Part shown: positions 1 to 38,666 of the stretch, in pieces
How positions within the stretch are numbered: position 1 is the stretch's first letter
Layout of the letters: every line of letters begins with the position of its first letter
Virus record (IMG/VR): IMGVR_UViG_3300045988_147970
DNA length: 38,666 bases
From: a virus
Taxonomy: Duplodnaviria; Heunggongvirae; Uroviricota; Caudoviricetes
Strand: one strand, 5' to 3'
The notes under the pieces: model-generated
Databases searched by the model: none
The model's input: only the letters and a program-made list of their open reading frames with translations
What the model was told of the DNA's origin: nothing
Position numbers and translations under genes: made by a program

Positions 1-3
1 CTA

Positions 4-231
4 TTATAAAGAACCTGAGCAGACAGCGGAGAAGTTTGTGCTATATCCTATTTTAGATACGGCCTCTGCGTATGTATAAGCAATGATAGGTTTATTTACC
101 GCTGAGGCTGGATCTTCTAACTGATTAACAGGAGCTGTACCAAATGCGACAATCAACCCAGCACTAACTTGTACTGGAGGAGTTATAGATGTAGCCAGCT
201 CAGATATATAAATACCGTGGCGATATCCCAT
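4..231 (-). CDS. tail sheath protein, 5-prime portion (N-terminal ~67 codons); gene continues at 37350..38666 if the window ends are joined
   Basis: N-terminus MGYRHGIYISE... resembles contractile sheath N-termini. Codons at 31..84 are identical to 38613..38666 and in frame with the sheath ORF at the other end; codons 4..30 (SAVCSGSL-stop) are junction-derived. Confidence 0.5.
   Translation of the reverse strand: MGYRHGIYISELATSITPPVQVSAGLIVAFGTAPVNQLEDPASAVNKPIIAYTYAEAVSKIGYSTNFSAVCSGSL
31..84. repeat. 54-bp exact direct repeat, copy 1 (copy 2 at 38613..38666)
   Basis: Identical 54-mer GAAGTTTGTGCTATATCCTATTTTAGATACGGCCTCTGCGTATGTATAAGCAAT at both ends; flanking bases differ (1..30 versus 38583..38612). 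Confidence 0.85.
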
Positions 232-521
232 TATTTAATCTCCATGATAGAAGAAGAAACTCTAGAGTACATTACATACTCGACACTGGTTTTATCAGAA
301 AGTCTTTTTTCTGCATCTGCAAAATCACTGGTTGCCACAAACAAACACTTTGCACCAGGAATATGTGATATTAATTTTTTACACTCTGGAGATAAACCAT
401 TCTTAAATAGTTTATGCTTCAAAATTGAGAGTTGAGGGATTGTTGGTCCTATATATACAAATGTTTGAGCAACATCTTCCTTCTTTTCTATATCTTCTTT
501 ACTACTTTTCTTATTAGCCAT
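231..521 (-). CDS. hypothetical protein (neck / tail-completion position between head and sheath genes)
   Basis: 96-aa ORF, co-oriented and tightly packed in the structural operon; no recognisable motif. Confidence 0.3.
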   Translation of the reverse strand: MANKKSSKEDIEKKEDVAQTFVYIGPTIPQLSILKHKLFKNGLSPECKKLISHIPGAKCLFVATSDFADAEKRLSDKTSVEYVMYSRVSSSIMEIK

Positions 522-1007
522 TTAGATAAACTCCTGAGACTGAATATTCTGAGGCTTTAATACTAGCCACGTTCCAGTTGCTTCCGTTATCCAATATGGA
601 TATGGTTGATCATCAAACATTCGCCATCTGATATCACCCTGAAAGAGAAATTTCTCTTCAAGTAAAGGCTTCTCCTGAAAATGAAACATCATCCTTTCAA
701 GAAGAGCCATTACCCATTCATATCCAGTATGGTCCTCACAAAAACCACCTAGAAGAAACTTAACCTTAACTTCATCCGTTTCAGGCTGCATTCCTCCTTC
801 CGTGGGCCTGATAATCACATGAGGAAATTCTGGCGGTTTATCTGGAGATGGTTGTGATTTAGGAGGCAAGTACCCTTTAAATATTGTTGGAACAAACAAT
901 TTAATATCGCTGTCTGTTTCATCATAAGGAGGCCCCTGCACTAATAAATCATGGAAAACCTCATGTTCCAACCGATTTTTTATTGCATCTATCAAAAGAT
1001 TAATCAA
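522..1007 (-). CDS. hypothetical structural protein (possible tail terminator / neck protein by position)
   Basis: 161-aa ORF immediately after the FII-like gene and before the sheath gene; synteny only. Confidence 0.35.
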   Translation of the reverse strand: MINLLIDAIKNRLEHEVFHDLLVQGPPYDETDSDIKLFVPTIFKGYLPPKSQPSPDKPPEFPHVIIRPTEGGMQPETDEVKVKFLLGGFCEDHTGYEWVMALLERMMFHFQEKPLLEEKFLFQGDIRWRMFDDQPYPYWITEATGTWLVLKPQNIQSQEFI

Positions 1008-1348
1008 ATCGGCATTCCTCTGTTAGTATTAACAGTGAGAGTTATTTCCAATACACCAACATTATCTGATACTTCATCAATAATATAATTTTTACCGTTG
1101 ATTTTCATTGACTGGTCTTTGACAGGGAGAACAGGAAAATCTTTTCTTGAAACAAATAATATTATTTGCCCCTGATTTATTCCCTCTGCAAACTCAGCAT
1201 ATGAGCGTTTATTCCGCTCATGAATAAGGTCTGTATCAATAACGGCAAGGATATCCTTGCCGTCTATGTTATATGTATCGGCAAACTCTTTTTCATTGAG
1301 GAATATTGCAGAAATATCTTGCGCTATAACCTCTTTGAAGGAGTTCAT
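1004..1348 (-). CDS. head-tail adaptor protein (lambda FII-like, tentative)
   Basis: 114 aa; position after the major capsid gene; loose pattern similarity to phage head-tail joining proteins; overlapping stop/start coupling. Confidence 0.4.
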   Translation of the reverse strand: MNSFKEVIAQDISAIFLNEKEFADTYNIDGKDILAVIDTDLIHERNKRSYAEFAEGINQGQIILFVSRKDFPVLPVKDQSMKINGKNYIIDEVSDNVGVLEITLTVNTNRGMPI

Positions 1349-1740
1349 TACTTCTTATTACCTTTTTTTTGCGTTGATTTTTTCGCATTACTGGTATCAG
1401 AAGTAGCTACAGATTCAGATGAATCATCAGCAACCGTTTCCTCATTGCCGCCATCATCCTCAAACTCAACCTCGAATACACAGCTACCCGCCTCCGTTCG
1501 CGTAATCAACCCCGCGTCCACAGCATCATTAACAGCAGATGCGTATCCATGCTCAAAAGCTAACTTAGCAGCATCATAGCCCCCGGCCGATGCCAAATCA
1601 CCATCCTCTTCGGTGGCAATAGCATGTCCTGACGCAATCAGTTCGGCAATTCTGGAGTTATCCATTAGCCCATTAAGCAAACGGCCCGCTTTTAGCGAGC
1701 CGTGGCTTATCGTATCAATGTTTTTAATCAGTCTGGCCAT
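1348..1740 (-). CDS. hypothetical head-completion protein (occupies the lambda FI position)
   Basis: 130 aa with an acidic C-terminal tail, immediately downstream of the major capsid gene; synteny only. Confidence 0.3.
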   Translation of the reverse strand: MARLIKNIDTISHGSLKAGRLLNGLMDNSRIAELIASGHAIATEEDGDLASAGGYDAAKLAFEHGYASAVNDAVDAGLITRTEAGSCVFEVEFEDDGGNEETVADDSSESVATSDTSNAKKSTQKKGNKK

Positions 1741-2784
1741 TTAAACCACCTTAGCCACCAGATAGGCATCAGCCACACCAGGATTAGGCAGTGGAGATGA
1801 CTTCATGGCAACATAACGGCCAGCCGGCTTACGAGTTACCCAGGTGTCTGGAACTCGTGGTGACTCAACAATCGTTAGAGTCTTTTCGGCGTCATCTACA
1901 AGCTCTACAGCACCATACAGCATCGTTCCTCGACCAGGAGAGCCAAAGAGGATCTTATCTTCCGGTACTAATGGTTCTGGTTTTCCTGTTTTATCATTGC
2001 GAATAAGTTCGTCGTAACCATAAAAATCGACACCTTCAAGATTGCCATAATGAGTTACGCCTTCTTCTAACTCCTTAGGCTCAATATACCCAAGCTCTTT
2101 TCGGCGATTATCAAGATATTTAGTTACTGCTTCATTTTTAACGAAAGCATCAACAACTTTTGCGCCCATTACGGCAACACGAGGTGTAAAACCTGAAGTT
2201 AGTGATACCCGACGTTTCCAGTTGCGAACATTGACCAACGGATCTGATTTTGCAGCACTCCATAAATCATCACCTGTCAGTTCAAGATATGGTTTATCTC
2301 CTTCCTCTTCAGGCCAAAAATAAACTGTGTCATCCACACCTTCACCAACAATATCAACCTGCCCCGTAAACAAGACTTGTGCACACATCCATTCTTCACG
2401 GCGGTTAACCATTTCATCAAGCTCAAGCAAATCTTTACCTAATTGCTCGGCGGCTCGTTCTGCTGGCGATTTTGCGTTGTAAATATTCTCACCCGGAAGC
2501 CTGTTTAAAAGCAGCTCTGCTGTTGTTACCAAATCAGGTGCAACAAGTGGTGGCTCCAGAGTTCTCGTTACAAAGCCGCGTCGCTCAACGGTTTTTGAGC
2601 CAAAACCTTTACCAACAAACGGAGCCATAGTACGGCCACCGCGAACAAAATCCAGATCAACTTTCTTTGTATTAAAGGTCTGAACACCAGGAAAAAAGGT
2701 ACGAAGAAGAAAACGACGAGCCTTGAAATTCTGAATAACAGGCTCAAGCATTGTACGTCGTTCAAAAATATCAATATTCGGCAT
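1741..2784 (-). CDS. major capsid protein, lambda gpE family
   Basis: 347 aa; size, position and sequence pattern consistent with lambda E-type major capsid proteins. Confidence 0.8.
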   Translation of the reverse strand: MPNIDIFERRTMLEPVIQNFKARRFLLRTFFPGVQTFNTKKVDLDFVRGGRTMAPFVGKGFGSKTVERRGFVTRTLEPPLVAPDLVTTAELLLNRLPGENIYNAKSPAERAAEQLGKDLLELDEMVNRREEWMCAQVLFTGQVDIVGEGVDDTVYFWPEEEGDKPYLELTGDDLWSAAKSDPLVNVRNWKRRVSLTSGFTPRVAVMGAKVVDAFVKNEAVTKYLDNRRKELGYIEPKELEEGVTHYGNLEGVDFYGYDELIRNDKTGKPEPLVPEDKILFGSPGRGTMLYGAVELVDDAEKTLTIVESPRVPDTWVTRKPAGRYVAMKSSPLPNPGVADAYLVAKVV

Positions 2785-2804
2785 AAAAATACGACCTCTT
2801 TATA

Positions 2805-3188
2805 TTATGCAGATGGATTTTGTTGTGCGGTGTTAAGGAATATCCCAACCTTCCGGCAAGCCAGATATACATCGGCAATCTTTGCTGATTCAGGAAGGAT
2901 AACCGCATGTGCATTGAACATTCCGGTCAGCCATGCTGTTCCAACTTGCGCTGAATCAGTCGCATCAATACTGTGTTGAGCGATACAATACGGTTCTTTT
3001 GCCACCCCCTCACCAGAGAGATTTATTGGTGCTACAGTGACAACATTTGTTGTCTGATCAATACTGACAAAAGCAAGCAACTCACCTCGATTTACTTTAC
3101 CGCTGGCAAGTTTAATACTTGTTGTAATTGCTGGCATACCACCAGAAATAATCAGATTATCTGGTTCAAATGAAAAAGACTCTCGCAT
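2805..3188 (-). CDS. head decoration protein (lambda gpD-like)
   Basis: 127 aa between the protease/scaffold and major capsid genes, as for lambda D; weak sequence pattern. Confidence 0.55.
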   Translation of the reverse strand: MRESFSFEPDNLIISGGMPAITTSIKLASGKVNRGELLAFVSIDQTTNVVTVAPINLSGEGVAKEPYCIAQHSIDATDSAQVGTAWLTGMFNAHAVILPESAKIADVYLACRKVGIFLNTAQQNPSA

Positions 3189-3197
3189 AAACTCACC

Positions 3198-4286
3198 TTA
3201 ATTTTTATCGCGGTTTTTAAATACTGACCCAATAACATTTTTTACTACTTCAGCTTGTTTATCTCCGTTGTTTTCTGGTTGATTAACATCAACTGAATCA
3301 TTCACCTCATTTGCGTCTTCTTGCCGTTGATTAAGAAAGTTTTTGTTACGCGCTCGCTCTGCATTCATAATTTCCAAAGCAAGTTCAGCCGCAGAAACTC
3401 CCGTTTTGAATTTTGCATTCTTAACCAGGTCGTCATGACCTGGAATCACGCTATTCTCGATTGTTTCAATGCGCTCGCGTTCTGATTTAACGCCCTCGTC
3501 TTTACCAGCATTAAAAACCTGATTGTATAATTCTGGATGTTTATTTTTTAATTCATCAAGAGTCACAACATCGTCCTCATTTTGTTCATTTAATTCAGTA
3601 GATAATTCATTTTTATTTTGTGGCAACTTTGCGAGCGAATCAGGTAATTTTGAAAACCTTGATGCTTCAAAAGTTATTCCATTGAGCGAAAGCATCCCTT
3701 CCTTTATAGAAGCGGATAAGCGCATTGGTTTTTCAACTTCGTCAGCAAATCCAAGCTCTACAGCCTCTTCTGCATTTAGCCATGTTTCCTGATCCATTAG
3801 TTCAATTAATTTATCCTCAGAAAGCCCTGTTTTCTCCTTATATGCAGATAAAATACTATCTCGTATCTTATCCATCATCTCAGCAATATCACGTAGTTCA
3901 TCCGCATCACCAGCAGCAAATGTCCACGGATTATGGATCATCATCATAGCATTAGATGGGATAACAACTTTATCACCTGCCATTGCAATAATGGTTGCAG
4001 CCGATGCAGCAATACCATCAATATAAACAGTAATATTAGCCTTATGACGTTTTAATGAAGAAAGAATAGCTTGAGCAGTAAAAACAGAACCACCATAACT
4101 ATTAATTTTTACGTTGATAGCATTTGATGATATATCCTTTAATTTATTAACTATGTCAGAAGAAGAAACCTCATCAAATTCGCCAATATATCCGTAGATT
4201 AAAAGTTCAGCCGGAGAGTCATCTTCACCCGTGCTATTTTTTATTTCCCACCAATTAGGCATCATCTGTCTCCATATTTTGTTCAT
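3198..4286 (-). CDS. prohead serine protease (ClpP/S49-like) with C-terminal scaffold-like region
   Basis: N-terminal half carries a ClpP/SppA-like motif (SYGGSV...GIAASAATIIAMAGDK); C-terminal half is charged and coiled-coil-like; lies between portal and decoration genes. Confidence 0.7.
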   Translation of the reverse strand: MNKIWRQMMPNWWEIKNSTGEDDSPAELLIYGYIGEFDEVSSSDIVNKLKDISSNAINVKINSYGGSVFTAQAILSSLKRHKANITVYIDGIAASAATIIAMAGDKVVIPSNAMMMIHNPWTFAAGDADELRDIAEMMDKIRDSILSAYKEKTGLSEDKLIELMDQETWLNAEEAVELGFADEVEKPMRLSASIKEGMLSLNGITFEASRFSKLPDSLAKLPQNKNELSTELNEQNEDDVVTLDELKNKHPELYNQVFNAGKDEGVKSERERIETIENSVIPGHDDLVKNAKFKTGVSAAELALEIMNAERARNKNFLNQRQEDANEVNDSVDVNQPENNGDKQAEVVKNVIGSVFKNRDKN

Positions 4287-5829
4287 TTACCTCAGAAACA
4301 GGAGGCGTAATCAGCCCCAACTCACGGCGAGCATTCTCTTCTCTGCCACAAATTTGTGCGGTTTCTTCCCAGTTAAGACCTGACATTTCAGCCGCTTCCT
4401 TTTCACGGGTAGAGAATGTTTCCTCAACACGCAGTTTTGCAGCTTTGACTTCTTTAAGGGGATCTAATTGGCCTTGTGATGGGCCATACCATTGAGCGCC
4501 ACTCCATGCAGCGCGATATTCAGGCCCATAAAAAAAACCAGGGGCAATAACACGACCTTTAGCAACGGCTTCGGCCAACCATTCCTCATAGATCGGTTGG
4601 CAAAATGACTGAACCATCCAGTCACGTCGCATACGGAACATTTTCCAGGCTTCAAGTAATGCGGCCCTGCTTGCGCTATAACTTGCTGTAAAATGCTTTA
4701 CCAAGAGTTCGTAAGGGAGTTCTAAAGCAGCCCCAATTTGACGGCATATGGCGACAACAAAACCATCAAATGCCGTATTTGGTCGCCCGGGATTTGCTGT
4801 ATCTATCGACTCACCTTCACCCAAACTTACTATGGAGCCATTCCCCATTTCTTGGGTGTTATCATCATGGTTATCGATCTGCTCGTACTGAGGGATACCC
4901 GATTCACCGACTGGTCCATCAGGAGCGTCTGTTTTAATAAAGACAGTAAACATCCCTGACACAACCGCAGCAACCAATTCAGCATCGGTGTATCGTCCTA
5001 ACTGCTTCAATGCTTCAATAACAGGAGCAAGGACAGGAACGCCACGACGTTGCCCAGGCCTTTCAAAATCCTGCATGACATGCAGAATATTTCTTCTTCC
5101 TGTTTTACTCCCATATGCGGGAATACGTTCCCACTTGCGGGTTACAAAACCAGAAGTCCCGGCTGGGTGATGTTTTGCAACCCAGTACGCCACAGGCTCG
5201 CTAAATTCACCAACCTCTACGCCACCGTAAAGATTTGGTATAAAACGATCCTCTGGATTGCAAACACGATCACCTTCAATTAAATAGACGCACAAATCAT
5301 ATATAACACCCTTACGCTTAATAACTGGTAGCGCAGCAAATATATCGCCAGATGTTAACGCAGATATTTGGACCAATGATTGCAATTGTCCAAAAGTACA
5401 CATTCTTGATGCATCACAATTTGGAGAATCAGCCCATAATCTAAACTCACGCTCAACATGCTTTTCCCATGCTCGCGCTTCTTCCTGCGTCATCCCCAAG
5501 AAATCGGCATCAATGTTCGCATTTAGTTTTAAACCGGAACCAACAACGTTTGTCCTGATAGTTTTTATTGCGCCAACCGATAGCGGGTTTCCCATGAAGA
5601 GATCACGAGAACGCTCACGCAATTTATCTATATTTTTAACAATATCATCATCAGGAGAACCAGCTTTACTAAACCAACCCCTTAATGATTTTTTATGAGT
5701 GCTTGCACCATGACGTGAATATCCAAGGTTATTAATACCTTCAAGTGCTTCTAACCGTTTTCTTGCCAAAGCTCGATTTAATGCCCTCTGAGGTGAAAAC
5801 GGCGCAATAACTCGATCAAGAATATTCAT
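4255..5829 (-). CDS. portal protein (lambda gpB family)
   Basis: 524 aa, immediately downstream of the gpW-like and large terminase genes; size and pattern typical of lambda-family portals. Confidence 0.8.
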   Translation of the reverse strand: MNILDRVIAPFSPQRALNRALARKRLEALEGINNLGYSRHGASTHKKSLRGWFSKAGSPDDDIVKNIDKLRERSRDLFMGNPLSVGAIKTIRTNVVGSGLKLNANIDADFLGMTQEEARAWEKHVEREFRLWADSPNCDASRMCTFGQLQSLVQISALTSGDIFAALPVIKRKGVIYDLCVYLIEGDRVCNPEDRFIPNLYGGVEVGEFSEPVAYWVAKHHPAGTSGFVTRKWERIPAYGSKTGRRNILHVMQDFERPGQRRGVPVLAPVIEALKQLGRYTDAELVAAVVSGMFTVFIKTDAPDGPVGESGIPQYEQIDNHDDNTQEMGNGSIVSLGEGESIDTANPGRPNTAFDGFVVAICRQIGAALELPYELLVKHFTASYSASRAALLEAWKMFRMRRDWMVQSFCQPIYEEWLAEAVAKGRVIAPGFFYGPEYRAAWSGAQWYGPSQGQLDPLKEVKAAKLRVEETFSTREKEAAEMSGLNWEETAQICGREENARRELGLITPPVSEVNEQNMETDDA

Positions 5830-6065
5830 AAATCTCTTATCACCACTCGTTTAATTCGTGGGCCTCGGCGTATACCTGCTGATAATCTTTCTACTTCATT
5901 ACGCCAGTAATCCATCTCTTTTCTGACTTCTGATAAATCCGCACGAGTTAACTGCCGCGTACCAAATTTATATGACTGACCGCCAATAGCAATAGCGCGA
6001 TATGCTTCCCGCCAGACAGATAACATCTCTCTGGCTTCAGTCAGAGAAAATGCTTCATTGTTCAT
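5826..6065 (-). CDS. head-to-tail joining protein gpW-like
   Basis: 79 aa between large terminase and portal as in lambda; C-terminal RRGP motif shared with lambda gpW. Confidence 0.6.
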   Translation of the reverse strand: MNNEAFSLTEAREMLSVWREAYRAIAIGGQSYKFGTRQLTRADLSEVRKEMDYWRNEVERLSAGIRRGPRIKRVVIRDL

Positions 6066-6076
6066 TTATATTTCCT

Positions 6077-7933
6077 CTATATGGTTACGCCTTTACTTAT
6101 AACTCTACGGCGTCTTCTACGTATACCTGACGAGTTCTGCACATACACATTACCTCGCATTTCCTGTTCGGCAAGCCAGTTAAAATTAGGGTTCAGAATT
6201 TCCATCGCGGCAGTTGCATAGTTACGGCAATCAAGAGGCTCGTTACGCTCGTAGACTTTCACCCACTTTTCTTTTGTCTGCCCATTTTTATATTCAAATA
6301 TTTTCTTCTCTGATAATAATCCTTTAAAGTATTCGGTATCATATCCTCTGTCAGAATCTAATGGGAAATGCATATAACCAGGACCAGGATCATGTAGTTT
6401 AATTCTTGCCATGATGGTCCCTTTACCATCATCAACCCCCAAATTAAACAACATAGCACCCACACGGTTATTATTACTTGGCTTTCCTATAAATGGTAAA
6501 CCTACCCCACCACGCCCCCTGATAGAGTATATTCGCCTTGATTCTCTCGGCTTAGTAAAGCGATATACCTCTGTCGTAAAATGCCCACCAGAGTCAATAC
6601 AAACGGAAGAAATCTGTAATTTTCGACCGTCACGGAATGACCAGCTACGGAGTAAGTATTCATCAAGTTGTTTCCAGACAACATCTTGTGCGGGATCACC
6701 TGGGAATATTTTATATTCTATCCCCCATGACTCCTTACCTTTTCCCCAACCGACCAATTCACAAACTAAATACGTGTCCTGTACGTCAACACCAGCACTT
6801 AACAATAAAACATCATCTGGTAAAAACTCTTCAAACCTTATTCTGCGTTGCAACAAGTATTCAGGATCGATATCGTCTTTAGCATCCTCTTTCCATGGCT
6901 CACCCAGCTTAAGGTTAATAAACTCCATTAATCCATTTTTATCGCGGTTTCTGGTTGCTTCCGTAAATTCTTCAACCAGCTCTGACAATGCAACCCACGG
7001 GGAGTAAAGACTGTTAATATGAAAACCAACAATACCTTTAACTCCAGTATGTTCAGCTATCCATACCCCCTTCGCCAACCAATCAACGTCTGGTTTACCA
7101 GATCCGCGCATAATCCCGCCGCACTCACAGCACTCATATCTGGCCGTTTCCGGTAACGCCTCACCTGAATCGCTCTTATCCCATCTGACTTGCGACCATT
7201 TCATCACCTGCATGGTGCCACAACATGGGCAAGGAACATGGTAGTAACGCTGATCGGAGAGCTTAAACCACTTGTGGATTTTGCTCGTTTCCTCCAAAAC
7301 AGGAGTAGAAACAAAAACTTTCTTACGATTATGAAAGTTGGTAGTACGCTGAATACCTAGTTTTAGTGGGTCGCCCTCCTGCGTCACACCGTAACGATCA
7401 ATCTCATCAGCTAACAGTATTCGAATTGGCCTGGATGCAAGACCTGCTGGGGAATTAGCACCAACAAGTGCTATATATCCACCAGCGTAATGCTTCATAC
7501 GTATAGTCGTGCTGGACTTTTTGGCTGCACCGCGCCCCTCTTTCCCTTCATGCAGCTTGTGTTTCAAACCAGGGGAATATTTGAACGTCGGATCAATACG
7601 CTCTTTTGAAAAAGCCTCAGCCGCCTCTACCGTTGGATAAATCATCAACTGAGGAGATGGCTCCTGATCTGCAAAGTAACCCATAACATTTAGCTGTAAT
7701 TCGGATTTACCAATTTGCGAGCTACATTGCATCACTACTGTTTCTGTATCAGCGTCACCAATAACATCCATTGGTTCACGCAAATATGGCACTCGGCTTG
7801 TACGCCACGGCCCTGGCTCTGGAGACGTTCCCGGCGCTACATGACGATACTTATCAGCCCATTCGGAAACAGTTAGCCGTGATTTAGGGCGAAGCGCACG
7901 GAAAAAAGCGGTGCTCCATACTGTTTCGCCCAT
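6077..7933 (-). CDS. terminase large subunit (lambda gpA family)
   Basis: 618 aa; N-terminal TVSEWADKYRHV resembles lambda gpA AVEWADANYYLP; Cys-rich CPCCG motif aligns with gpA CPHCG. Confidence 0.85.
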   Translation of the reverse strand: MGETVWSTAFFRALRPKSRLTVSEWADKYRHVAPGTSPEPGPWRTSRVPYLREPMDVIGDADTETVVMQCSSQIGKSELQLNVMGYFADQEPSPQLMIYPTVEAAEAFSKERIDPTFKYSPGLKHKLHEGKEGRGAAKKSSTTIRMKHYAGGYIALVGANSPAGLASRPIRILLADEIDRYGVTQEGDPLKLGIQRTTNFHNRKKVFVSTPVLEETSKIHKWFKLSDQRYYHVPCPCCGTMQVMKWSQVRWDKSDSGEALPETARYECCECGGIMRGSGKPDVDWLAKGVWIAEHTGVKGIVGFHINSLYSPWVALSELVEEFTEATRNRDKNGLMEFINLKLGEPWKEDAKDDIDPEYLLQRRIRFEEFLPDDVLLLSAGVDVQDTYLVCELVGWGKGKESWGIEYKIFPGDPAQDVVWKQLDEYLLRSWSFRDGRKLQISSVCIDSGGHFTTEVYRFTKPRESRRIYSIRGRGGVGLPFIGKPSNNNRVGAMLFNLGVDDGKGTIMARIKLHDPGPGYMHFPLDSDRGYDTEYFKGLLSEKKIFEYKNGQTKEKWVKVYERNEPLDCRNYATAAMEILNPNFNWLAEQEMRGNVYVQNSSGIRRRRRRVISKGVTI

Positions 7934-7938
7934 GAGGT

Positions 7939-8499
7939 TTATTCTTCCTGCTTAATAAATCGGGATTCCTGGAGCGCCTGAAGCGCAAAATTAATCTCGT
8001 CTTCAATAATGCGTTCGATCTCCCTGGCTGTTTTGCCTTCACAACGGGGAGCTGCTCTTGGAGCAATACTAAATAAGCGGCTACGCAATTCATTAGCTGC
8101 CAGAAATGCATCATCCCTGACCGCATCTTTAGCGATGAGAGAGCCTTCCTTTTCTTCAAATTCAAGGCGTTTCAGCTTTGCCTGATAAATTTTTTCTGCG
8201 GTCTTAGCCTTGTTGAATTGCACCGCAACACCGGAAGTACCACCAGCTAATCCGGCATCATCAGCGGGTAACTCTGGTTGTTCCGAAGATATCCCATGCC
8301 CTCTTTTTCCATTTTCAGCAGATACCTCACGACCAACCTGTCGGCTCGCTTCATAAGCCGCACTGGCTTTATCAAAATCCAGCTTGCCGCTTTTCAGCAC
8401 TGGAATGCGACCGGAACGACAGAGCTTCGTAACCATTGCCGGAGAAATACCTTTCCGGCGAGCAAACTCTGACTTACTGACGATGGCCATTACTTGCAA
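7939..8499 (-). CDS. terminase small subunit (Nu1-like, N-terminal HTH)
   Basis: 186 aa directly upstream of the large terminase; N-terminal helix-turn-helix-like segment (SKSEFARRKGISPAMVTKL). Confidence 0.6.
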   Translation of the reverse strand: MQVMAIVSKSEFARRKGISPAMVTKLCRSGRIPVLKSGKLDFDKASAAYEASRQVGREVSAENGKRGHGISSEQPELPADDAGLAGGTSGVAVQFNKAKTAEKIYQAKLKRLEFEEKEGSLIAKDAVRDDAFLAANELRSRLFSIAPRAAPRCEGKTAREIERIIEDEINFALQALQESRFIKQEE

Positions 8500-9080
8500 C
8501 CATTAGCAAGATACTGAACAAATCCCTCATGCGTTTCATGCGCGTCGTGGTACTGACGATAAACATCCAGCAACAATGCAATTTCCATATCCGTCGCGGG
8601 AATACGTTCTTTATCAATAGCCAGGTACTTAATTTGAACAACAGGGGAAGAATTATCGTCTTCTTCCTGCGGCTGTTCATCGCTTAACATTTCGTCAAGC
8701 TCTGCATCATTAAACCCAAGCAGATCAATATCAAAATCATCATCCATTAACTCTTTGACTTCTTCGGCCAGAAGCTGCATATCCCAGCCAGCATTTAAGG
8801 CCAGCTTGTTATCTGCAATCCTGTAAGCCTTCTTCTGTTTTTCAGAAAGGTTACTCAACCGAATCGCCGGAACTTTATCCATTTCCAGAATTTCGGCTGC
8901 TGCAAGCCGACCATGCCCCGCAATCAGTTCATTCTTTTCATCGATCAGCACAGGATTAGTGAAACCGAACTCACGGATACTGTTCACCAACTGTTCAACC
9001 TGCTCATCTGAATGAGTCCGTGAATTTTTGGCGTATCTGAGCAGCTTACCGACTGGTAAATATTCGATTTTTAGAGCCAT
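8490..9080 (-). CDS. ParB-like nuclease domain (ParB/Srx N-terminal domain) protein
   Basis: 196 aa with ParB N-domain box (LIAGHGRLAAA); stop overlaps the small terminase start; paralog of 11747..12370. Confidence 0.7.
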   Translation of the reverse strand: MALKIEYLPVGKLLRYAKNSRTHSDEQVEQLVNSIREFGFTNPVLIDEKNELIAGHGRLAAAEILEMDKVPAIRLSNLSEKQKKAYRIADNKLALNAGWDMQLLAEEVKELMDDDFDIDLLGFNDAELDEMLSDEQPQEEDDNSSPVVQIKYLAIDKERIPATDMEIALLLDVYRQYHDAHETHEGFVQYLANGCK

Positions 9081-9637
9081 TTTTTAACCGCCATAACACA
9101 ACAGGTTAAAGAAAACTGTTTAACTTATTGATACTAAAAGAGAAAAATGACGATCTTTTTACTCATAAAAAATCACACAAACCAGCATAATCATCTGATT
9201 TTATTAAGTTTTTATAAGTAAAAAGGATCTTGAGATGGTGTTTTGGTTAAAAGATTGGATGTATTTGCATGATTTATAACGATTTTTATCAGAACAACAT
9301 CACATTGGTTAAAGATCTGCGCGTATCTTGATGATCTAAAAGAAAATTTTCTACTTTCTTTTTACCAGCACAAATACAGCAAAAAATCACGTTTTCCCGA
9401 TATTTTTCAATGAGATGAGTAAATTTCTTTTACCGCAACTTTTAACCTAACTTTTTTCACGTTTAGCTAGCCGAACATCGGGGTTCGAATGACCCGCATC
9501 CAACGCTTTTGTCCAGAAGGACCCAATTCTGCCGGACGATGAAACGATGCTCGTGCACCCCCACAGACAGCCAGCGAGCGACGCTACAGAACACAGTGAA
9601 TACACTCTGCATAACAACACCATCAACCACACGATGA

Positions 9638-10357
9638 TTAACGAGAGAAGGTCTTGGAAAGAATGTCATCAATAGCCTTTGTGACTTCATCAGCAAACGC
9701 ATCCTCACCAGCACGCAGCGCCACGCCATGCCAATCAAGACGCTGCGAATAGTTAGGTTGCTGGATAAACGTAAGGATCAACGTAGGACGCCGCCCAACG
9801 CGCTGCCAGACGCCTGGTTGAAGCGGGTTACTTGTACCAGGTCGAACAACAAAAAACTCCGTAGGCTTGCCCTGACGGCGATTTTGATGCGCATCTCGCT
9901 GAACTCTTAGGCCAGATAAGACCTGCTGTAATTGCCCCCGCGAAATATTCCCGTATTTGTCCAGCTTTGCGCCGGGACCAGGAGCAATCTGCCAGCCGTT
10001 AGGCAAATATCCACCAGCCCTTAGCGCCCCTTCTGAGCGTTTGTACTGTCGTTGGCCACCTTCGATTTGCGGAGTCAACGTTACAGGGGCTGGCGTTCCT
10101 CCCCATTCACGAGCATACACAATGGCTGTAGGATCACTCTTCTTTGCGGCCAAAACGTAAGTAGAGTTCTGAATCCACGGCGTGGGCCTGTCAAATACCC
10201 GATTAATTTCATTCTTAATCGCAGCCTGAGAAGCCTTTGCCGTTCTGGTTGCCGCAAGCGCCATTGCGAACGGCAATTCGCGTTCTTCAAGGCGCTGGAG
10301 TTGTCGTTGAATATCCTGAGAAGAAAAATCCATCTTTATCTCAATTCTGTCAGCCAC
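9638..10357 (-). CDS. hypothetical protein within the ParB/methyltransferase cassette
   Basis: 239-aa ORF co-oriented between the ParB-MTase fusion and the terminase-proximal ParB gene; no motif recognised. Confidence 0.35.
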   Translation of the reverse strand: MADRIEIKMDFSSQDIQRQLQRLEERELPFAMALAATRTAKASQAAIKNEINRVFDRPTPWIQNSTYVLAAKKSDPTAIVYAREWGGTPAPVTLTPQIEGGQRQYKRSEGALRAGGYLPNGWQIAPGPGAKLDKYGNISRGQLQQVLSGLRVQRDAHQNRRQGKPTEFFVVRPGTSNPLQPGVWQRVGRRPTLILTFIQQPNYSQRLDWHGVALRAGEDAFADEVTKAIDDILSKTFSR

Positions 10358-10373
10358 CAGCGCCTCCTACACA

Positions 10374-11753
10374 CTACTTAATCAACGGCCGGAAAGCCGC
10401 CAGCACATCATCAGATCGTCCGATTGTTGAACCACCAGGCAACGGCAACTCAAACTCAAAACGAACAGCTTTCTCCAGACTCGCCCAACTAAGGGAATCA
10501 TCGTTAATGACGTGCAAATACCAGCTCTTACAGTTGAATATTGACCGCTTAATCCTGAAACCATGTACACGACACAACTGCTTCACTTCCTCATCAGAGT
10601 GAAACTTCTGGTAAAACCAGTGCCCCTTCCGGTACAACGCGGTAAAACCGTCATGATCAATAAAATAAAGCCGGCTTTTGGAACTCGCCGCTTGTGTTTG
10701 CTTCAGGACTGTTTCCAGTTCTCCACGGCTACGGCCAGAAAAGAATATTGACCCACCAGCTTTACACAGGCCTTTCAGAACCGTCAGAACGGACCATTCA
10801 GCCTCGACACTATCGACCGAGTTCAAAACGCTATCGCAAATCACGTAGTCGTAACGCCCTCGCGTTTTTAAGTCGTCCACCAGCGTATCAATCATCCGGT
10901 TTGTTGCGGCCCTATCCAGAGTGTTTCCAGCGCCCTTACGGCGGAAAAGCTCGAGATCATGCAGGTTATATCCCTTTGCCCTGAGCATTCGCGCGTAGTC
11001 TCCCTGCCCCGAACCAAAATCAATTCCTCTTGGCGTCTTGGCAATGATCGGGAGGATCAACGACTCATACAGATTTGATTTCAGGCTGCCACCATTACGC
11101 AACCGCATAAGCTGCGCATACGTCTGGATGTATGTTGTTTTCTCCAGATGAGAATACTCAAATACACCATAAGTTTTATTCAGATAACTTTGGTATTTTT
11201 CCTTCTCAACATCAGGGATCACAAACACCGTTAGCGGTGTGCGCGTCATTTTCGCTGCTAATGCATACTGAGCACAGTGAATAACCTCACCAGACTGAGT
11301 AGCAACACAACCACCCCACGGACCATACTTGATAACCAGTTCCGCTATGTTCTTTCGAACATATGCCATTTTCGCGCGCATATTGCCTGAGATCTGGCTT
11401 GCCGATACCTGAACAAAACCATGCTTATCTTCCAGACCGGACACCCTGCAACGCTCATCTCCGCTATCAAAATCCGTTCCGTTATGCAGTTGGTTAAACC
11501 GTACTTCGTCGTATACCGTCGTTTCACAGGGCAACACATACACCGCAGCACGCGTTATTCCCAACTTACGTAGCGCCTTCGTCCTTTGGTGTCCCGCCAC
11601 CAGCAAATCGCCGCGCACTATCAATGGCTTCACAAGCCCCAGCTCCCTGACGCTTTCCGCCAGCCTCGCAAGATCATCCTCACCGATAAAACGCGGGTTA
11701 TATTCCGCGCCGCGTAGGTGCGTTATGTCGTAATTGAGGTGAAGCATCAGCAC
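10374..11753 (-). CDS. ParB-like N-terminal domain fused to a class I SAM-dependent methyltransferase domain
   Basis: N-terminus has a ParB box (LLVAGHQRTKALRKLG); C-terminal half has SAM-MTase motif I (IDFGSGQGDYARML), an acidic motif II (YDYVICDSV) and GGSIFFSG; 459 aa. Confidence 0.65.
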   Translation of the reverse strand: MLMLHLNYDITHLRGAEYNPRFIGEDDLARLAESVRELGLVKPLIVRGDLLVAGHQRTKALRKLGITRAAVYVLPCETTVYDEVRFNQLHNGTDFDSGDERCRVSGLEDKHGFVQVSASQISGNMRAKMAYVRKNIAELVIKYGPWGGCVATQSGEVIHCAQYALAAKMTRTPLTVFVIPDVEKEKYQSYLNKTYGVFEYSHLEKTTYIQTYAQLMRLRNGGSLKSNLYESLILPIIAKTPRGIDFGSGQGDYARMLRAKGYNLHDLELFRRKGAGNTLDRAATNRMIDTLVDDLKTRGRYDYVICDSVLNSVDSVEAEWSVLTVLKGLCKAGGSIFFSGRSRGELETVLKQTQAASSKSRLYFIDHDGFTALYRKGHWFYQKFHSDEEVKQLCRVHGFRIKRSIFNCKSWYLHVINDDSLSWASLEKAVRFEFELPLPGGSTIGRSDDVLAAFRPLIK

Positions 11754-12370
11754 ACCTCCCCAGCCAGCAATGCGGATACAAATCCGATATAGCTGCCATT
11801 ATCATCAACATAACGAGACACCGCGCAGTCAAAACGATCCGCTTCCTCATCCGTTGCCGGGATTTTATGACCTCCAAATGACAGGTACTGAACTTTTACG
11901 CCTGATTTGGCCTCATCCTTCTCAAATGGGATATCCATACCCTCTGTGTCATCGTAGACCGCCGCACTCAATAAGTTATCCAGTTCGCGCTGAGTAAAAC
12001 CAATTGAGTCCAGAGCAAAATCATCGGCCGCAAGATCTGCAAGCTCCGCGCTTAACAACTCTTCATCCCAACCAGCATTCAGCGGAATACGGTTGTCGGC
12101 CAGACGATATGCCTTCTTCTGATTCTCCGTTAGCCCAGCCAGAACAATGCAGGGAACATCATCCATCCCCAACTGAGTGGCCGCAGCAATTCGACCATGA
12201 CCAGCAATTACAACGTTGTTCTCGTCTATCAGGATCGGATTAGTCCATCCGTACTCCTGTATGCTGGCAACAATCTGATCTACCTGCTCCACGGAGTGTG
12301 TGCGAGCGTTCTTTTCATAACCAATCAACACAGAAAGTGGTAAAGAAACCACATTAAGATGTTTTGTCAT
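11747..12370 (-). CDS. ParB-like nuclease domain protein (paralog of 8490..9080)
   Basis: 207 aa; ParB box (VIAGHGRIAAA); similar along its length to the 196-aa ParB-like protein, including the C-terminal KIPATDEE region. Confidence 0.7.
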   Translation of the reverse strand: MTKHLNVVSLPLSVLIGYEKNARTHSVEQVDQIVASIQEYGWTNPILIDENNVVIAGHGRIAAATQLGMDDVPCIVLAGLTENQKKAYRLADNRIPLNAGWDEELLSAELADLAADDFALDSIGFTQRELDNLLSAAVYDDTEGMDIPFEKDEAKSGVKVQYLSFGGHKIPATDEEADRFDCAVSRYVDDNGSYIGFVSALLAGEVC

Positions 12371-12604
12371 GCCGTTTATCCGCTAAAATCCCCTCGCTTG
12401 TGCAAGCAAGTGGGCCTCGGTTTGTATCCACGGCACCCTGTGGGTATGAATGACTGTCGTCAGGTCGCAACTGACGGCGGTCGCCCACCTTCCAGTAATA
12501 AAAAAGCCACCAGCATTAACTCCACAGCGAGCAGGAGTTAATGAGGCAGCTTTGGTTTGCGCATTATCGCAGCCCCTGATTAGCACAAGAGCTGCTGTAA
12601 TGCG

Positions 12605-13015
12605 TTACGCAGGGATCAAACAGATGTGGCCGTTATTTACCTCAATACGGGAATATTCCGGCTTACCATCCACGATTCCGGTAATGACAAGTTCGCCATC
12701 AGGCGACCATTCTTCTTTGTCGTCTTCAAGTACCGCGCCTTCTGGCAAATCAATACAGGCAAAAACAGGGCAGCCAGGATGACGTTTATCCTCCATCGCA
12801 ATCAGCATCGACTCACCGAACCACTCTGTGGTAGCACGGCCATCAGCCGCCTGATAGTGAATCAGATACTGGTTTTCGCCATTTGCATACTGAGCACGGG
12901 CTTGAACTTCTCCCCACTCTTCACTGATACGCATTGTTACCAGTTGGGATAATTCAAACTTAAACGGAACAGACTCTGCACCAATGGCAATCGGTTTATC
13001 TTCTTTCTTTTCCAT
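12605..13015 (-). CDS. hypothetical protein
   Basis: Start chosen at MEKKEDKP (residue 24 of the track ORF) because AGGTGA sits 5 nt upstream and a terminator-like hairpin lies just before it. Confidence 0.35.
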   Translation of the reverse strand: MEKKEDKPIAIGAESVPFKFELSQLVTMRISEEWGEVQARAQYANGENQYLIHYQAADGRATTEWFGESMLIAMEDKRHPGCPVFACIDLPEGAVLEDDKEEWSPDGELVITGIVDGKPEYSRIEVNNGHICLIPA

Positions 13016-14251: not shown

Positions 14252-14355
14252 TCTCCGGTTTAACCAGGGCGGGTATCGCTCGGTTTCGGGTATAATCATA
14301 GGAAATTTTTTCCCACCTGCAAAGCACTTTTTATATAAATATATAATTATATAAT
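14252..14355. repeat. ~104-bp duplicated promoter-leader module, copy A (copy B at 21832..21935)
   Basis: ~93% identical to 21832..21935; each copy sits directly upstream of a minus-strand gene start and carries the AGGAAA-N3-TTTCC operator-like motif and AT-rich TATATAA repeats. Confidence 0.6.
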
Positions 14356-15252: not shown

Positions 15253-15328
15253 TGGTGGCCCCTACCGGATTTGAACCGATGACCGTGCGATTATGAGTCG
15301 CCTGCTCTAACCACTGAGCTAAGGGGCC
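15253..15328 (-). tRNA. tRNA with anticodon CAU, ileX-like (tRNA-Ile2 or Met); 3-prime CCA encoded
   Basis: Reverse complement GGCCCCTTAGCTCAGTGGTTAGAGCAGGCGACTCATAATCGCACGGTCATCGGTTCAAATCCGGTAGGGGCCACCA folds as a cloverleaf; the first ~42 nt match my recollection of E. coli ileX. Confidence 0.85.
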
Positions 15329-15497
15329 ATATTTGATCTGTTTGTCTGGTGTGGCGCCGCGCACGAAAATCCCAGCCAATAAATTCAGGATTTTTGGGCG
15401 CGGCGGCATATCAGACAAACATGGTTGATGCGTGCGCCCATGAGAAAAGCGCATAGAATGTTGTAACTATATATTTATATAATTATAGAAATATATA

Positions 15498-15707
15498 TTA
15501 CTTTCGGCAGTTGATTTCCCATGCCCTGTTATGAGCCAGAATATCTTTCTTTGTCTGGCGGTCCATAACATCGATGTCGTGATCAGTCAGGTAGATGGGC
15601 TTTACCCAATCACAGGCGGTATCAACCACCACCGGGACGCTTCCACGACTCCCGCAGCTCGCGATCAACATCGTCATCAGCCATATGGTTAACACTCTGC
15701 TGTACAT
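15498..15707 (-). CDS. o-spanin (Rz1-like outer-membrane lipoprotein)
   Basis: 69 aa with lipobox LIASC; reading frame overlaps the 3-prime end of the i-spanin gene. Confidence 0.55.
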   Translation of the reverse strand: MYSRVLTIWLMTMLIASCGSRGSVPVVVDTACDWVKPIYLTDHDIDVMDRQTKKDILAHNRAWEINCRK

Positions 15708-17898: not shown

Positions 17899-18104
17899 TT
17901 GTTAATCCTCAAAACTTTATGCCCGGGCGCAAAAGCACGCGTTTTGTCGGCGCTTATTCGCCACCCATCTTTACGTGCCTCTTTTGCACAGCCAGCCCAT
18001 GACGTACCGATATATTCACCGAAGTCTGGTACTGGATATACACCTTCCGTACACTGGCGGCAGTCACAATAGAGATGCATGGTGTAACTTGCGGCAACAG
18101 CCAT
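17895..18104 (-). CDS. small Cys-rich protein (possible zinc-binding)
   Basis: Start at MAVAASY (residue 37 of the track ORF) with GGAG 8 nt upstream; contains CDCRQC. Confidence 0.3.
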   Translation of the reverse strand: MAVAASYTMHLYCDCRQCTEGVYPVPDFGEYIGTSWAGCAKEARKDGWRISADKTRAFAPGHKVLRINK

Positions 18105-18105
18105 A

Positions 18106-18297
18106 TCACTCTCCTTTAGTACGCAAGTGGTTTTTCCAGCGGTTTTGCGCCGCGCTGCGCTTATCTTTGACTCCCTCTCTGGCAATTCCAGAAAATGAAA
18201 ACAACACCACACGGCGATTGCTAACTCTCAACCACTGGCTGGGGTAGCAAAGTCTGTATACACGGGAAATAAGCATCTTTGCTTTACGGTTTTTCAT
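18106..18297 (-). CDS. hypothetical small basic protein
   Basis: 63-aa ORF; ATGA start/stop overlap with the upstream 58-aa ORF. Confidence 0.25.
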   Translation of the reverse strand: MKNRKAKMLISRVYRLCYPSQWLRVSNRRVVLFSFSGIAREGVKDKRSAAQNRWKNHLRTKGE

Positions 18298-20031: not shown

Positions 20032-20036
20032 CTTGC

Positions 20037-20680: not shown

Positions 20681-20757
20681 TGTCGAGGCGTCCTTATAAA
20701 TTTATATAAATATATAATTCTATATAAGGCGGGAGACATCCCGCCGTAGGCTTACTG

Positions 20758-21825
20758 TCAGGCTTTCAATAGCGATTCTTTCAGATATCGGGCATCAGCC
20801 AGGGCGTTTGGAGTAATCTTGCGAACCCATGCATTACGGGTTGGACTCCACTTAAAGGCGCGTGATTTAAGCAGCGAACGAATGTTTGCCTCTGGTTTGC
20901 CTGGGAAATAAAACAGGATGCGGTTATCCTCTGGATCTATCTCCATAGAAAAGCCGTCGTATTCTTCGCGCTGTGCTCCTGTTACAGACTTGACCGATTC
21001 AAGCTCCTTAATACGGCTCTGTAGTCGTTTGATTTCGGCGTTATTGTTGCTCAGTGCGTATGAAGGGAATCCGATGTGCCCACAGAAATCTCCGGCCAGT
21101 AACTCTTTGGCTTCGCTTTCTGTAAACCTGAGATCGATTAATGCAGAAAGCTGCTGTAATTGGTCTTTTTTGTATTTGCGAATGGCCTTATTTGCGGCCT
21201 TCATTTTGACGTGTGACTTCATGCAGCCTTGCAGCTTACGAAGCAACTTAAATAGCGCATCAGGATCATCAGACGAAATTCCATTACGACCAACACCTGC
21301 GGCTTTGCTCTCGTAGTGTGATGCTTTACTTTCGCATTCAACAAACGCTTTTCTTAATAACGCATCAGCTTTAGACAAACGGCGGCGATGGCCTTTCGCG
21401 CTATAATGGTCAACTAAAATCGGCTGGCCTAACGGGATCACATCCAACAGGTCATGCGCTCGCTTATGCGCTACCGCACCTTCTTTTCTGGCTTTTTCTG
21501 CACGAGCAATATATCGGGCAAGACGCGCGTTCTGGCGTTCCTGATAGGTGTTTACGTAATCATCTCCGCGCTGCTGCTGTTCAAGCCATGCTTTGCGCAG
21601 ATCTTCTGTTACGTCCACCAGCTCCGCAGGGATACAACCAGTTTGGGCTTCATAAGAGTAACCATCCTCATAGATACGCCCATCATCTTCAACAAAGAAA
21701 AAGGTTTCGTGCTCATCGCTTTTGACCATACGACCATTAACATGGCGTAATAGGTAGCCAGTATCAGTGCTTAACAAGCTGTTAGGGTTGTTGATCCAGT
21801 CAGAAATAATTACTTGTTTATTCAT
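20758..21825 (-). CDS. DUF3560-like protein with N-terminal extension
   Basis: Start at MNKQVII (residue 51 of the track ORF) with GGAG RBS; motifs GQPILVDHYSAKGHRRR, SSDDPDALFKL, KAANKAI, DFCGHIGFPSYALSNNNAEIKR, FKWS match my recollection of DUF3560. Confidence 0.5.
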   Translation of the reverse strand: MNKQVIISDWINNPNSLLSTDTGYLLRHVNGRMVKSDEHETFFFVEDDGRIYEDGYSYEAQTGCIPAELVDVTEDLRKAWLEQQQRGDDYVNTYQERQNARLARYIARAEKARKEGAVAHKRAHDLLDVIPLGQPILVDHYSAKGHRRRLSKADALLRKAFVECESKASHYESKAAGVGRNGISSDDPDALFKLLRKLQGCMKSHVKMKAANKAIRKYKKDQLQQLSALIDLRFTESEAKELLAGDFCGHIGFPSYALSNNNAEIKRLQSRIKELESVKSVTGAQREEYDGFSMEIDPEDNRILFYFPGKPEANIRSLLKSRAFKWSPTRNAWVRKITPNALADARYLKESLLKA

Positions 21826-21831
21826 CAGATT

Positions 21832-21935
21832 TCTCCGGTTTAACCAGGGCGGGTATCGCTCGGTTTCGGGTATAACCTTAGGAAATTTTTTCCCACCCGT
21901 AAAGCACTTTTTATATAAATCTATAATTATATAAA
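21832..21935. repeat. ~104-bp duplicated promoter-leader module, copy B
   Basis: See copy A; upstream of the DUF3560-like gene start at 21825. Confidence 0.6.
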
Positions 21936-37349: not shown

Positions 37350-38666
37350 TTATTCAGAAAACAAGTTCAGCAGATAATCAGGATTATATTCCATGACGAA
37401 CTCTATATCTCTGGCAGGTGAGAATGGTGTCATTTTTACATGGAATTTAACAATCCCGTCCATCAATGACGTAATCGTGTTTTCAGACTGATCAAAGGTA
37501 ACAACACCACCTGCAATATCCTGATTACCAGTGAGGCCGTTAAGCCAAATATTCGCACTAGTAACAATCGATTCAATTAATCGACGGTTTGCAGGATTGT
37601 CTATTTTTGACCAATGCGAAAGAATTAACGTATTACCCACCCAGTTAAACATACGTCGGCAAACACGAAATGCGTCTTTGGGGTCTGTAGATGTTGGATA
37701 AATAGCATTACGGTTTCCCCATGATTTCCAACCATCAAAATTAAGGCTTGTTACAATCCCCTGTCCATTTAAGTAGTTTGCCTGGCTAATGTTAAGCCAT
37801 ACCTCACTGCCATCTTTACGTACAGCACCGTCCATCTGTAGTTTTATATTTGACGGAGAACGTGATGGAATATCATCATACTGACTATCCAGCAAGCATG
37901 TTGCTGCAGCTAAATGGGTTGAGTGATGGTAAATATTGTCACCAAGTTTCACCATCGGCCAGCACACTGTCTGGTTAGCTGCCATATGATTATTGTTCTG
38001 CTTCCATTCAGGAACAGCAGAATAATCACTGATAGTAGATTTATCAGTCGGCGCATCGGTGATAGCTTCTGCTTTGAACAATTCACTAATCAGCGCAGCT
38101 TTAGCCGCCATTAGCTGGCCAACTTCACTATCAGAACTAAATCCAGGCGCAATCACTTGTCCAGGAACCAACTTGAAGCGGGGATACACATCAGACAGTA
38201 ACTCAAGCCCTGTATTGGCTTTAGTGTTGGAATCCACACCACCGATAATGTCATTTTTAGTTACGGCACCGGGATCAAGATGCGTATAACTAACCTTAAG
38301 AGTAGCGTCTTTTTCGGTAATTTTTCCTCCGCTAATAGCGGTAATGACCGTATAGCCATTATCATCCAGCGCCAGCACATAATCGGTGTCAACCGTTAAT
38401 CCTGCCGAATCACCATCTGCTTTTTTCACAACAACAGATTTATATAAGACACCATCGTTAGAGAGCGTACCTTTCCCGCCAGAAAGTTTTACTACCTCAT
38501 CAGGTACGTCTTTCTTATGCTTTGCTGGATCAAGCACATTAATAAATACAACTGGCGCAACACCATATATTCCAAATGCGACTTTAATTACTTCGCTTAA
38601 AGTATATTTCTCGAAGTTTGTGCTATATCCTATTTTAGATACGGCCTCTGCGTATGTATAAGCAAT
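37350..38666 (-). CDS. tail sheath protein, 3-prime major portion (reading frame open to the window end)
   Basis: Track ORF 37350..38537 plus 43 in-frame codons to 38666; the first 18 of these are the 54-bp repeat also at 31..84, linking to the N-terminal fragment at 4..231; immediately upstream of the tube gene. Confidence 0.8.
   Translation of the reverse strand: MAYTYAEAVSKIGYSTNFEKYTLSEVIKVAFGIYGVAPVVFINVLDPAKHKKDVPDEVVKLSGGKGTLSNDGVLYKSVVVKKADGDSAGLTVDTDYVLALDDNGYTVITAISGGKITEKDATLKVSYTHLDPGAVTKNDIIGGVDSNTKANTGLELLSDVYPRFKLVPGQVIAPGFSSDSEVGQLMAAKAALISELFKAEAITDAPTDKSTISDYSAVPEWKQNNNHMAANQTVCWPMVKLGDNIYHHSTHLAAATCLLDSQYDDIPSRSPSNIKLQMDGAVRKDGSEVWLNISQANYLNGQGIVTSLNFDGWKSWGNRNAIYPTSTDPKDAFRVCRRMFNWVGNTLILSHWSKIDNPANRRLIESIVTSANIWLNGLTGNQDIAGGVVTFDQSENTITSLMDGIVKFHVKMTPFSPARDIEFVMEYNPDYLLNLFSE
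38613..38666. repeat. 54-bp exact direct repeat, copy 2 (ends exactly at the window end)
   Basis: See copy 1 at 31..84. Confidence 0.85.

Follow-up and report, generated by a model that had tools for sequence, protein, structure and literature searches.

The two ends of the viral contig IMGVR_UViG_3300045988_147970 (38,666 nt, the whole of which is called the window in what follows) show an assembly artefact of a known kind, namely a circular-contig overlap together with a chimeric tip, and not a biological feature. It is very probable that a circular (or circularly permuted) E. coli phage-plasmid of myovirus type was assembled here from short reads and written out in linear form, with a chimeric-read tip attached to it.

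Tail sheath gene at the contig ends and in circular relatives

The two ends of the window are linked by a 54-nt direct repeat of 100% identity, positions 31-84 being the same as 38613-38666 according to both the repeat finder and direct reading. About 7e8 position pairs in 38.7 kb have to be set against 4^54, and for this reason the repeat cannot be attributed to chance. The identity ends sharply at the boundary, where the alignment has an A at position 30 and a C at position 38612. The features at the two ends are as follows.

31..84, sheath codons 50-67 on the minus strand: first copy of the terminal overlap (repeat finder, translation)
38613..38666: second copy of the terminal overlap, the same single-copy sequence in the real circle (repeat finder, relatives)
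85..231, minus strand: tail sheath codons 1-49, with the ATG at 231-229 (translation; aligns with the start of the sheath CDS of plasmid p48)
37350..38612, minus strand: tail sheath codons 68-487 and the stop codon (translation)
4..231, minus strand: artefactual chimeric ORF of 75 aa, made of 67 sheath codons followed by SAVCSGSL, the antisense of the Mediterraneibacter faecis fragment

Read on the minus strand, the sheath frame comprises 49 codons from 231 to 85, the 18 codons of the 54-mer, and 420 codons plus the stop from 38612 to 37350, that is, 487 codons in one single frame. At the window end, the frame continues after the 18 repeat codons as EKYTLSEV... down to the stop at 37350; at the window start, the same frame enters 30..1 as SAVCSGSL and then meets two stop codons. 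The joined protein of 487 aa matches PHROG 23 "tail sheath" over residues 1-486 (E = 2.9e-95), its counterpart in RefSeq relatives is annotated by PGAP as "phage tail sheath family protein" and the gene that comes after it in these relatives as "phage major tail tube protein"; the identity of the gene rests on this full-length profile match and on the adjoining tail tube gene. It is worth mentioning that the same protein has no Pfam-A match even at E <= 10, and there appears to be a gap in the Pfam coverage of sheath proteins. As to the chimeric 75-aa ORF, no exact product was found in an index of 153 billion genes. The first-pass annotation had proposed that the repeat was exact and lay inside the tail sheath reading frame, that the N-terminal codons (85..231) and the rest of the gene (37350..38612) were in the same frame, that 1..30 did not match 38583..38612, and that these 30 nt encoded an 8-codon tail ending in a stop; all of these readings are borne out by the repeat finder, the translations and the PHROG 23 match.

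The first 1.2 kb of the window matches five phage records and 72 complete E. coli genomes at ~99-99.9% identity, and all but one of the 77 E. coli match places (76/77) lie on plasmids of ~47-49 kb. In each of the 77 near-identical records (five phage and 72 E. coli), the alignment begins at query position 31 and never at position 1. About 70 of the relatives were deposited as circular plasmids, two of which were fetched for comparison: p48 (strain 1428, NZ_CP023368.1, 48,774 bp) and pSCU-204-5 (NZ_CP053252.2, 47,295 bp). Besides the genes for RepA, ParA, a RelE/ParE toxin-antitoxin pair and an XRE-type repressor, both carry a full myovirus module (terminase, portal, protease, capsid, sheath, tube, tape measure, baseplate and fibres). 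The co-occurrence of plasmid genes and of a complete myovirus morphogenesis module means that the family is one of phage-plasmids, which PLSDB types as non-mobilizable. The window resembles these 47-49-kb contractile-tail phage-plasmids of E. coli, as well as the Yersinia phages vB_YpM_39/41/44, with ~98-99.7% nucleotide identity over the long aligned blocks that make up most of its length, and its genes come in the same order (terminase, portal, capsid, sheath, tube, tape measure, baseplate, fibre, RepA, RelE/ParE toxin-antitoxin, lysis). Unlike them, it is devoid of an arc of ~8.6-9.5 kb (ParA, XRE-type repressor, ORF6N/Rha, Ref nuclease, DUF1064), and it also departs from p48 in the tail-fibre region, p48 having an invertible segment with a recombinase. 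We found no family name for the closest phages in the literature, where one preprint lists vB_EcoM-613R2 among prophages with ParB.

Relative to p48 and pSCU-204-5, two closed circles of E. coli, the window is collinear in the reverse direction, with 31-12995 aligned to p48 34264-21300 and 28449-38666 to p48 44428-34211. Window 31 falls on p48 34264 and window 38666 on p48 34211; in other words, the two copies of the 54-mer lie on the same 54 bases of a p48 sheath gene that is intact (34064-35527, 1,464 nt, containing 34211-34264), and in pSCU-204-5 both copies likewise fall on a single site. A 354-nt in-silico join that keeps one 54-mer differs from p48 by one mismatch and from pSCU-204-5 by two, with no indel, and the joined sheath protein agrees with the p48 sheath in 486 of 488 columns, as expected from the earlier proposal that joining the ends yields one gene of ~487 codons. 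Five independent relatives in total (the two circular plasmids and three IMG/VR contigs with the 40-mer) read uninterrupted across the join, with the sequence ...TATATTTCTC/GAAGTTTG...GCAAT/GATAGG over both boundaries (slashes), i.e., the window end and then window 85 onward. It follows that the 54-mer exists only once in the real molecule, as relatives that were closed independently contain it a single time and have the two contig ends side by side. The duplication results from writing a circle as a line, and the sheath gene of the real molecule is intact, with 487 codons. CheckV calls a direct terminal repeat (DTR) when a repeat of at least 20 bp occupies the first and the last bases of a contig; here, the right copy reaches the last base, 38666, but the left one begins only at 31, behind 30 foreign nt, and in this strict sense the repeat is not a DTR.

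Origin of the first 30 nucleotides

What precedes the left copy of the repeat is foreign to the phage-plasmid.

1..30, plus strand: foreign fragment from outside the phage-plasmid, sense strand of a Mediterraneibacter faecis gene for an AMP-binding (adenylation) enzyme
31..42, no strand: exact microhomology of 12 nt, GAAGTTTGTGCT, common to the M. faecis gene and the phage sheath gene (three-way alignment)

No second copy of window 1-30 occurs in the window on either strand with up to three mismatches, which rules out an internal rearrangement or an inverted duplication as the source of the 30-mer. Neither does it have a 28-nt word match in 5,426 complete E. coli genomes, a null result that rules out an E. 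coli host flank or the end of an IS. The 30-mer is not in IMG/VR, and its partial matches in 50,697 phage records are at chance level. When the junction-proximal 24-mer (window 7-30) was used as the scan query, it was found in [Ruminococcus] faecis JCM 15917, a species now named Mediterraneibacter faecis (family Lachnospiraceae), and in 72 human-gut metagenome contigs. Window 1-42 is identical in 67 of the 74 loci fetched from the type-strain genome and these 72 contigs, and the identity to M. faecis therefore goes 12 nt past the supposed boundary at position 30. At the junction, none of the M. faecis loci goes on into phage sequence, and the 67 that reach the site run uninterrupted. In JCM 15917, the locus holds a gene (5051-6418, plus strand) for a 455-aa AMP-binding enzyme (PF00501, E = 2.4e-42), of which window 1-30 encodes the part ...GYYKEPEQTAEKFV... 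By eye, the 30-mer bears no resemblance to the Nextera, TruSeq, 454, Ion, PacBio and ONT adapters, and the question of an adapter is moot because of the positive identification in M. faecis.

The bases around the junction read ...GCGGA GAAGTTTGTGCT g TATCCT g T agatgg in M. faecis and ...TTCTC GAAGTTTGTGCT a TATCCT a T tttaga in the phage, that is, 12 of 12 bases are shared over 31-42 and 19 of 21 over 31-51. Homology of the two parent genes is ruled out, one coding for an AMP-binding enzyme on the plus strand and the other for a tail sheath on the minus strand; because the genes are unrelated and their coding strands opposite, the 12-nt identity is due to chance and not to common descent. By simple arithmetic, about ten thousand shared 12-mers are expected between a genome of ~3 Mb (the size that we assumed for M. 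faecis) and one of 38.6 kb, which means that there is no shortage of possible partner sites. The probability of finding at least 12 shared bases at a random, homology-independent junction is ~6e-8, and it follows that the join was driven by microhomology. The two parental sequences are unrelated and have a short identical stretch exactly at their junction, as in a microhomology-induced chimeric read or a template-switch chimera. The source contig and a second instance of the junction were looked for by scanning metagenome contigs with the 24-mer, and only loci of the M. faecis type were recovered.

The first-pass annotation had regarded the extreme start of the contig as an assembly junction and not as biology, a view that is reinforced by the tracing of the 30 nt to an M. 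faecis gene, and which the alignment allows us to refine: the foreign identity reaches position 42, so that the true crossover is situated somewhere within 31-42. The foreign piece is real DNA of a co-resident gut Firmicute, neither adapter nor noise. Its origin in M. faecis, taken together with the E. coli nature of the element, points to a sample of human-gut type.

As a side observation, Halobacillus litoralis (NZ_WMEW01000004.1, 1091-1117, minus strand) has 27 nt, the 24-mer followed by GAA, that are identical to the M. faecis fragment, although neither the genome nor the flanks are related; a match of this length goes far beyond chance, with ~7e-5 expected in 596 Gb. This match may reflect either a conserved segment of the adenylation domain or contamination.

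Formation of the ends and its practical meaning

The layout of the window is best explained in the following way. The 54-nt repeat would be the overlap left when an assembler travels once around a circle and stops on re-entering its starting node. A chimeric molecule or read probably carried 30-42 nt of the M. faecis AMP-binding gene at its 5' side and then switched into the phage sheath gene at the 12-nt match, most simply if single-stranded M. faecis DNA mis-annealed to phage DNA at this match (19/21) and was extended in the course of end repair; template switching in PCR could be an alternative to such mis-annealing. In a read that starts 30 nt ahead of the switch, the k-mers would be novel until they lie wholly inside the phage sequence, and a 30-nt dead-end tip would be left hanging on the phage cycle; with fewer than k foreign bases, it could make no connection with the graph of M. 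faecis. The emitted path would then consist of the tip (30), the node (54), the cycle and again the node (54), which is the observed layout; and because the tip would enter the cycle at this very place, the foreign bases abut a repeat copy and the circle is opened in the middle of a gene. Assemblers normally clip short tips, and this counts against the tip model.

Several elements of the model have been described before. Lengths of DTRs in metagenomic contigs peak at the k values of assemblers, e.g., 55, 77 and 99 (CheckV, PMC8116208), the end overlap equals maxK for metaSPAdes and MEGAHIT and maxK-1 for IDBA_UD, and single aberrant reads produce extra contig ends (COBRA, PMC10914622). Microhomology-induced chimeric reads (MICR) are generated by mis-annealed single-stranded DNA during end repair (MicroSEC, PMC8674242). 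The length of 54, equal to 55-1, fits the maxK-1 convention (an assembler of the IDBA_UD type or a classical de Bruijn graph at k = 55), and it is one short of the 55 nt that metaSPAdes or MEGAHIT would leave and of the 55 peak of CheckV. Both the chimeric-read tip and the reading of 54 as k-1 at k = 55 are what we infer from the layout, and for the length itself it is a matter of conjecture whether it stands for k-1 or has no k-mer meaning at all.

The ends of the window share with the terminal overlaps of assemblers (the "DTR contigs" of CheckV and IMG/VR) an exact direct repeat of about k in length that links the ends, is single-copy in the real genome and falls at an arbitrary place, here in mid-gene; they differ from them by a length of 54 and not of an odd k such as 55, and by an opening point that is not random here but set by the attachment of the chimeric tip. 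As in MICR (MicroSEC, PMC8674242) and in PCR template-switch chimeras, unrelated DNAs are joined at a short shared sequence (12/12, 19/21), and the foreign part is confined to the end of a read-sized stretch. Unlike MICR, which concern one human FFPE genome, two organisms of a metagenome are involved here, and the event is known from its imprint on a contig end.

The value of this case is mainly practical (trimming, circularisation, gene calling), and its biological interest is low. The 30-nt foreign tip moves the overlap away from the literal start of the contig and in this way affects the detection of circularity. Gene callers will produce a bogus chimeric ORF of 75 aa and a sheath gene truncated at its 5' end in place of one protein of 487 aa, and a spurious Firmicute signal is possible in taxonomic or host-prediction tools. 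The remedy is to drop 1-84 (or 1-30 together with 38613-38666), after which the 38,582 bp that are left can be handled as a circle and rotated to a starting point outside any gene. The window also illustrates cleanly that one microhomology chimera can be enough to fix the point at which a circle is opened in assembly.

Other explanations of the ends have to be weighed against a chimeric read. The join might have been made by the assembler itself, at a gap-closing, scaffolding or low-k step in which a dangling M. faecis end was connected through the 12-nt (19/21) overlap. The junction does sit at a short exact overlap with near-identity beyond it, the sequence outcome would be identical, and some assembler gap closers accept overlaps of ~10 nt, as in SPAdes settings, which favours a join at this level. 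However, the M. faecis part is only 30 nt long, whereas the joining of two graph tips would usually add an entire M. faecis edge, of k nt or more, and 12 exact bases are fewer than any usual k. We regard the assembler-level join as rather unlikely, a lesser alternative whose practical meaning is the same as that of a chimeric read.

One could also imagine a real junction formed in vivo, by which the phage-plasmid and the M. faecis chromosome were joined in a microhomology-mediated illegitimate recombination, with capture of Firmicute DNA or the reverse. If true, such a junction would record a phage in the act of capturing DNA from another phylum in the gut, an environment that both organisms inhabit in humans, and microhomology-mediated end joining does give junctions with ~5-20 shared nt. 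But the element is ~99% or more identical to plasmids of E. coli, which belongs to another phylum than M. faecis, and the junction destroys an essential structural gene; the foreign DNA is present on one side only and over 30 nt only. Moreover, every one of the 67 M. faecis loci that reach the site runs on uninterrupted, the junction is in no other contig or gene record of the collections searched, and the intact continuation of the sheath gene is found at the other end of the same contig. Taken together, these observations make an in-vivo event very improbable. The 54-nt repeat can also be excluded as a true DTR at the physical termini of a linear phage genome, for although short exact DTRs occur in some tailed phages and the element encodes a large terminase, the repeat interrupts the sheath CDS (codons 50-67), it is single-copy and uninterrupted in two closed circular plasmids and three viral contigs, its left copy is not terminal but preceded by 30 foreign nt, and the relatives are closed circles, some 70 of them deposited as such.

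At first sight, the contig end is reminiscent of a prophage-host junction or of the ends of Mu-like phages, in that non-phage bacterial DNA abuts phage DNA at a contig end. It departs from them in that the flank comes from another phylum and exists on one side, and in that the junction falls within a structural gene, away from any genome end or att site. A prophage-host junction or a Mu-type host flank was accordingly rejected: what is seen is a lone 30-nt Lachnospiraceae flank in mid-sheath, in a family of E. coli plasmids, with no integrase or transposase nearby, and the annotated relatives have none either, apart from the tail-fibre invertase-type recombinase of p48.

Missing arc and repeats of the shortened circle

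The continuous gene order that the first-pass annotation had predicted from joining the ends is present at the join, but the circle as a whole is ~8.6 kb shorter than every relative examined: the closed circle has 38,582 bp, against 47-49 kb for full-length relatives. The window is without the equivalent of pSCU-204-5 18148-26734 (~8.6 kb), an arc that all relatives examined possess and which contains two hypothetical/HTH genes and the genes for an ORF6N protein, ParA, the XRE repressor, the Ref nuclease and DUF1064, among others. Because the circle closes and nonetheless is without these ~8.6 kb, closure by an end overlap is not proof of completeness. The limits of the arc coincide exactly with a ~103-113-nt repeat in two direct copies (pSCU-204-5 18034-18147 and 26735-26846), and the window has a hybrid between them.

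21822..21934, no strand: hybrid copy of the ~110-nt direct repeat, A-type on the left and B-type on the right, with a private SNP

In relatives, the two repeat copies share an exact run of 66 nt. The private SNP of the window would cut this run to 46 + 19 nt, and the two repeat copies of the window share 44 exact nt.

The junction that results from the loss of the arc was not found in one piece in any of 100 E. coli, 62 PLSDB and three phage records. A gapped pattern gave no further case in IMG/VR, a null result that is valid because the pattern does match the window itself. Nor did the junction occur in 24 contigs that encode an identical copy of the adjacent DUF3560 protein; among the matches listed, the long DUF3560 contigs all have the standard ParA/repressor neighbourhood.

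Two readings of the shorter circle are, in our estimation, about equally credible. On the one hand, the 38,582-bp circle may be a sub-cycle of the assembly graph, the true genome measuring ~47 kb and the assembler having skipped the 8.6-kb ParA/repressor arc by passing from copy A to copy B; the chances of this are about even. It would account for arc edges that coincide with direct ~110-nt copies whose exact run of 66 nt exceeds k = 55, for the A-left/B-right hybrid in the window and for a junction present in no other record, and short-read contigs of relatives do break inside the ~110-nt repeat. Against it, the contig passes through the repeat without a break, the private SNP leaves exact runs of 46 + 19 nt, shorter than 54, the two window copies share just 44 nt, and recombination between direct repeats of ~110 nt is also a normal route to real deletions. 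On the other hand, the loss of the ParA and repressor arc may, with a similar even chance, be genuine, the window then standing for a naturally dominant deletion variant of the phage-plasmid family.

Several independent short-read contigs of relatives in Logan/ENA stop within the repeat, at a distance of 36-81 nt upstream of the DUF3560 gene, and for this reason the ~110-nt repeat is a recurrent assembly breakpoint for the family. The repeat exists in three direct copies per full-length plasmid (pSCU-204-5 18034-18147, 26735-26846 and 33617-33719), and the window has two, at 14252-14354 and 21822-21934. Every copy extends to, or almost to, the start codon of a gene (in pSCU-204-5, these codons begin at 18144, 26843 and 33727) and holds an AT-rich promoter-like block (TATATAAATCTATAATTATATAA), a conserved leader of ~80 nt and an RBS. 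Judging from this composition, the repeat seems to provide three operons with a common promoter and 5' leader. Related AT-rich blocks are situated at window 15468-15511 and 20695-20730. A structured RNA is unsupported for the ~110-nt repeat, with a fold z-score of -0.65 and no Rfam match.

Some further observations concern the window and its family. The region 25712-28449, which touches a tail-fibre ORF of 934 aa (26438-29242, minus strand) and adjoining genes, diverges from p48, where the fibre gene is shorter, the fibre-assembly genes are opposed and a recombinase is present, i.e., an invertible host-range segment; the region is closer to pSCU-204-5, yet ~73% identical or unaligned over ~1 kb. 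One IMG/VR contig that has the same sheath segment, IMGVR_UViG_3300029841_000009, is 68,543 nt long, as compared with 47-49 kb for the closed plasmids; its excess length may mean a concatemer, a mis-assembly or a relative with a larger genome. The only tRNA gene of the window, at 15253-15328 (minus strand), has a CAT anticodon; ARAGORN calls it tRNA-Met, and RefSeq names its counterpart in relatives tRNA-Ile, presumably a lysidine-modified tRNA-Ile2. Finally, window 34025-34306 has three copies of ~42 nt (~71% identity) with a spacing of 120 nt inside the 930-aa tape-measure gene (33574-36366, minus strand), a pattern that suggests a tape-measure protein with an internal repeat of 40 residues.
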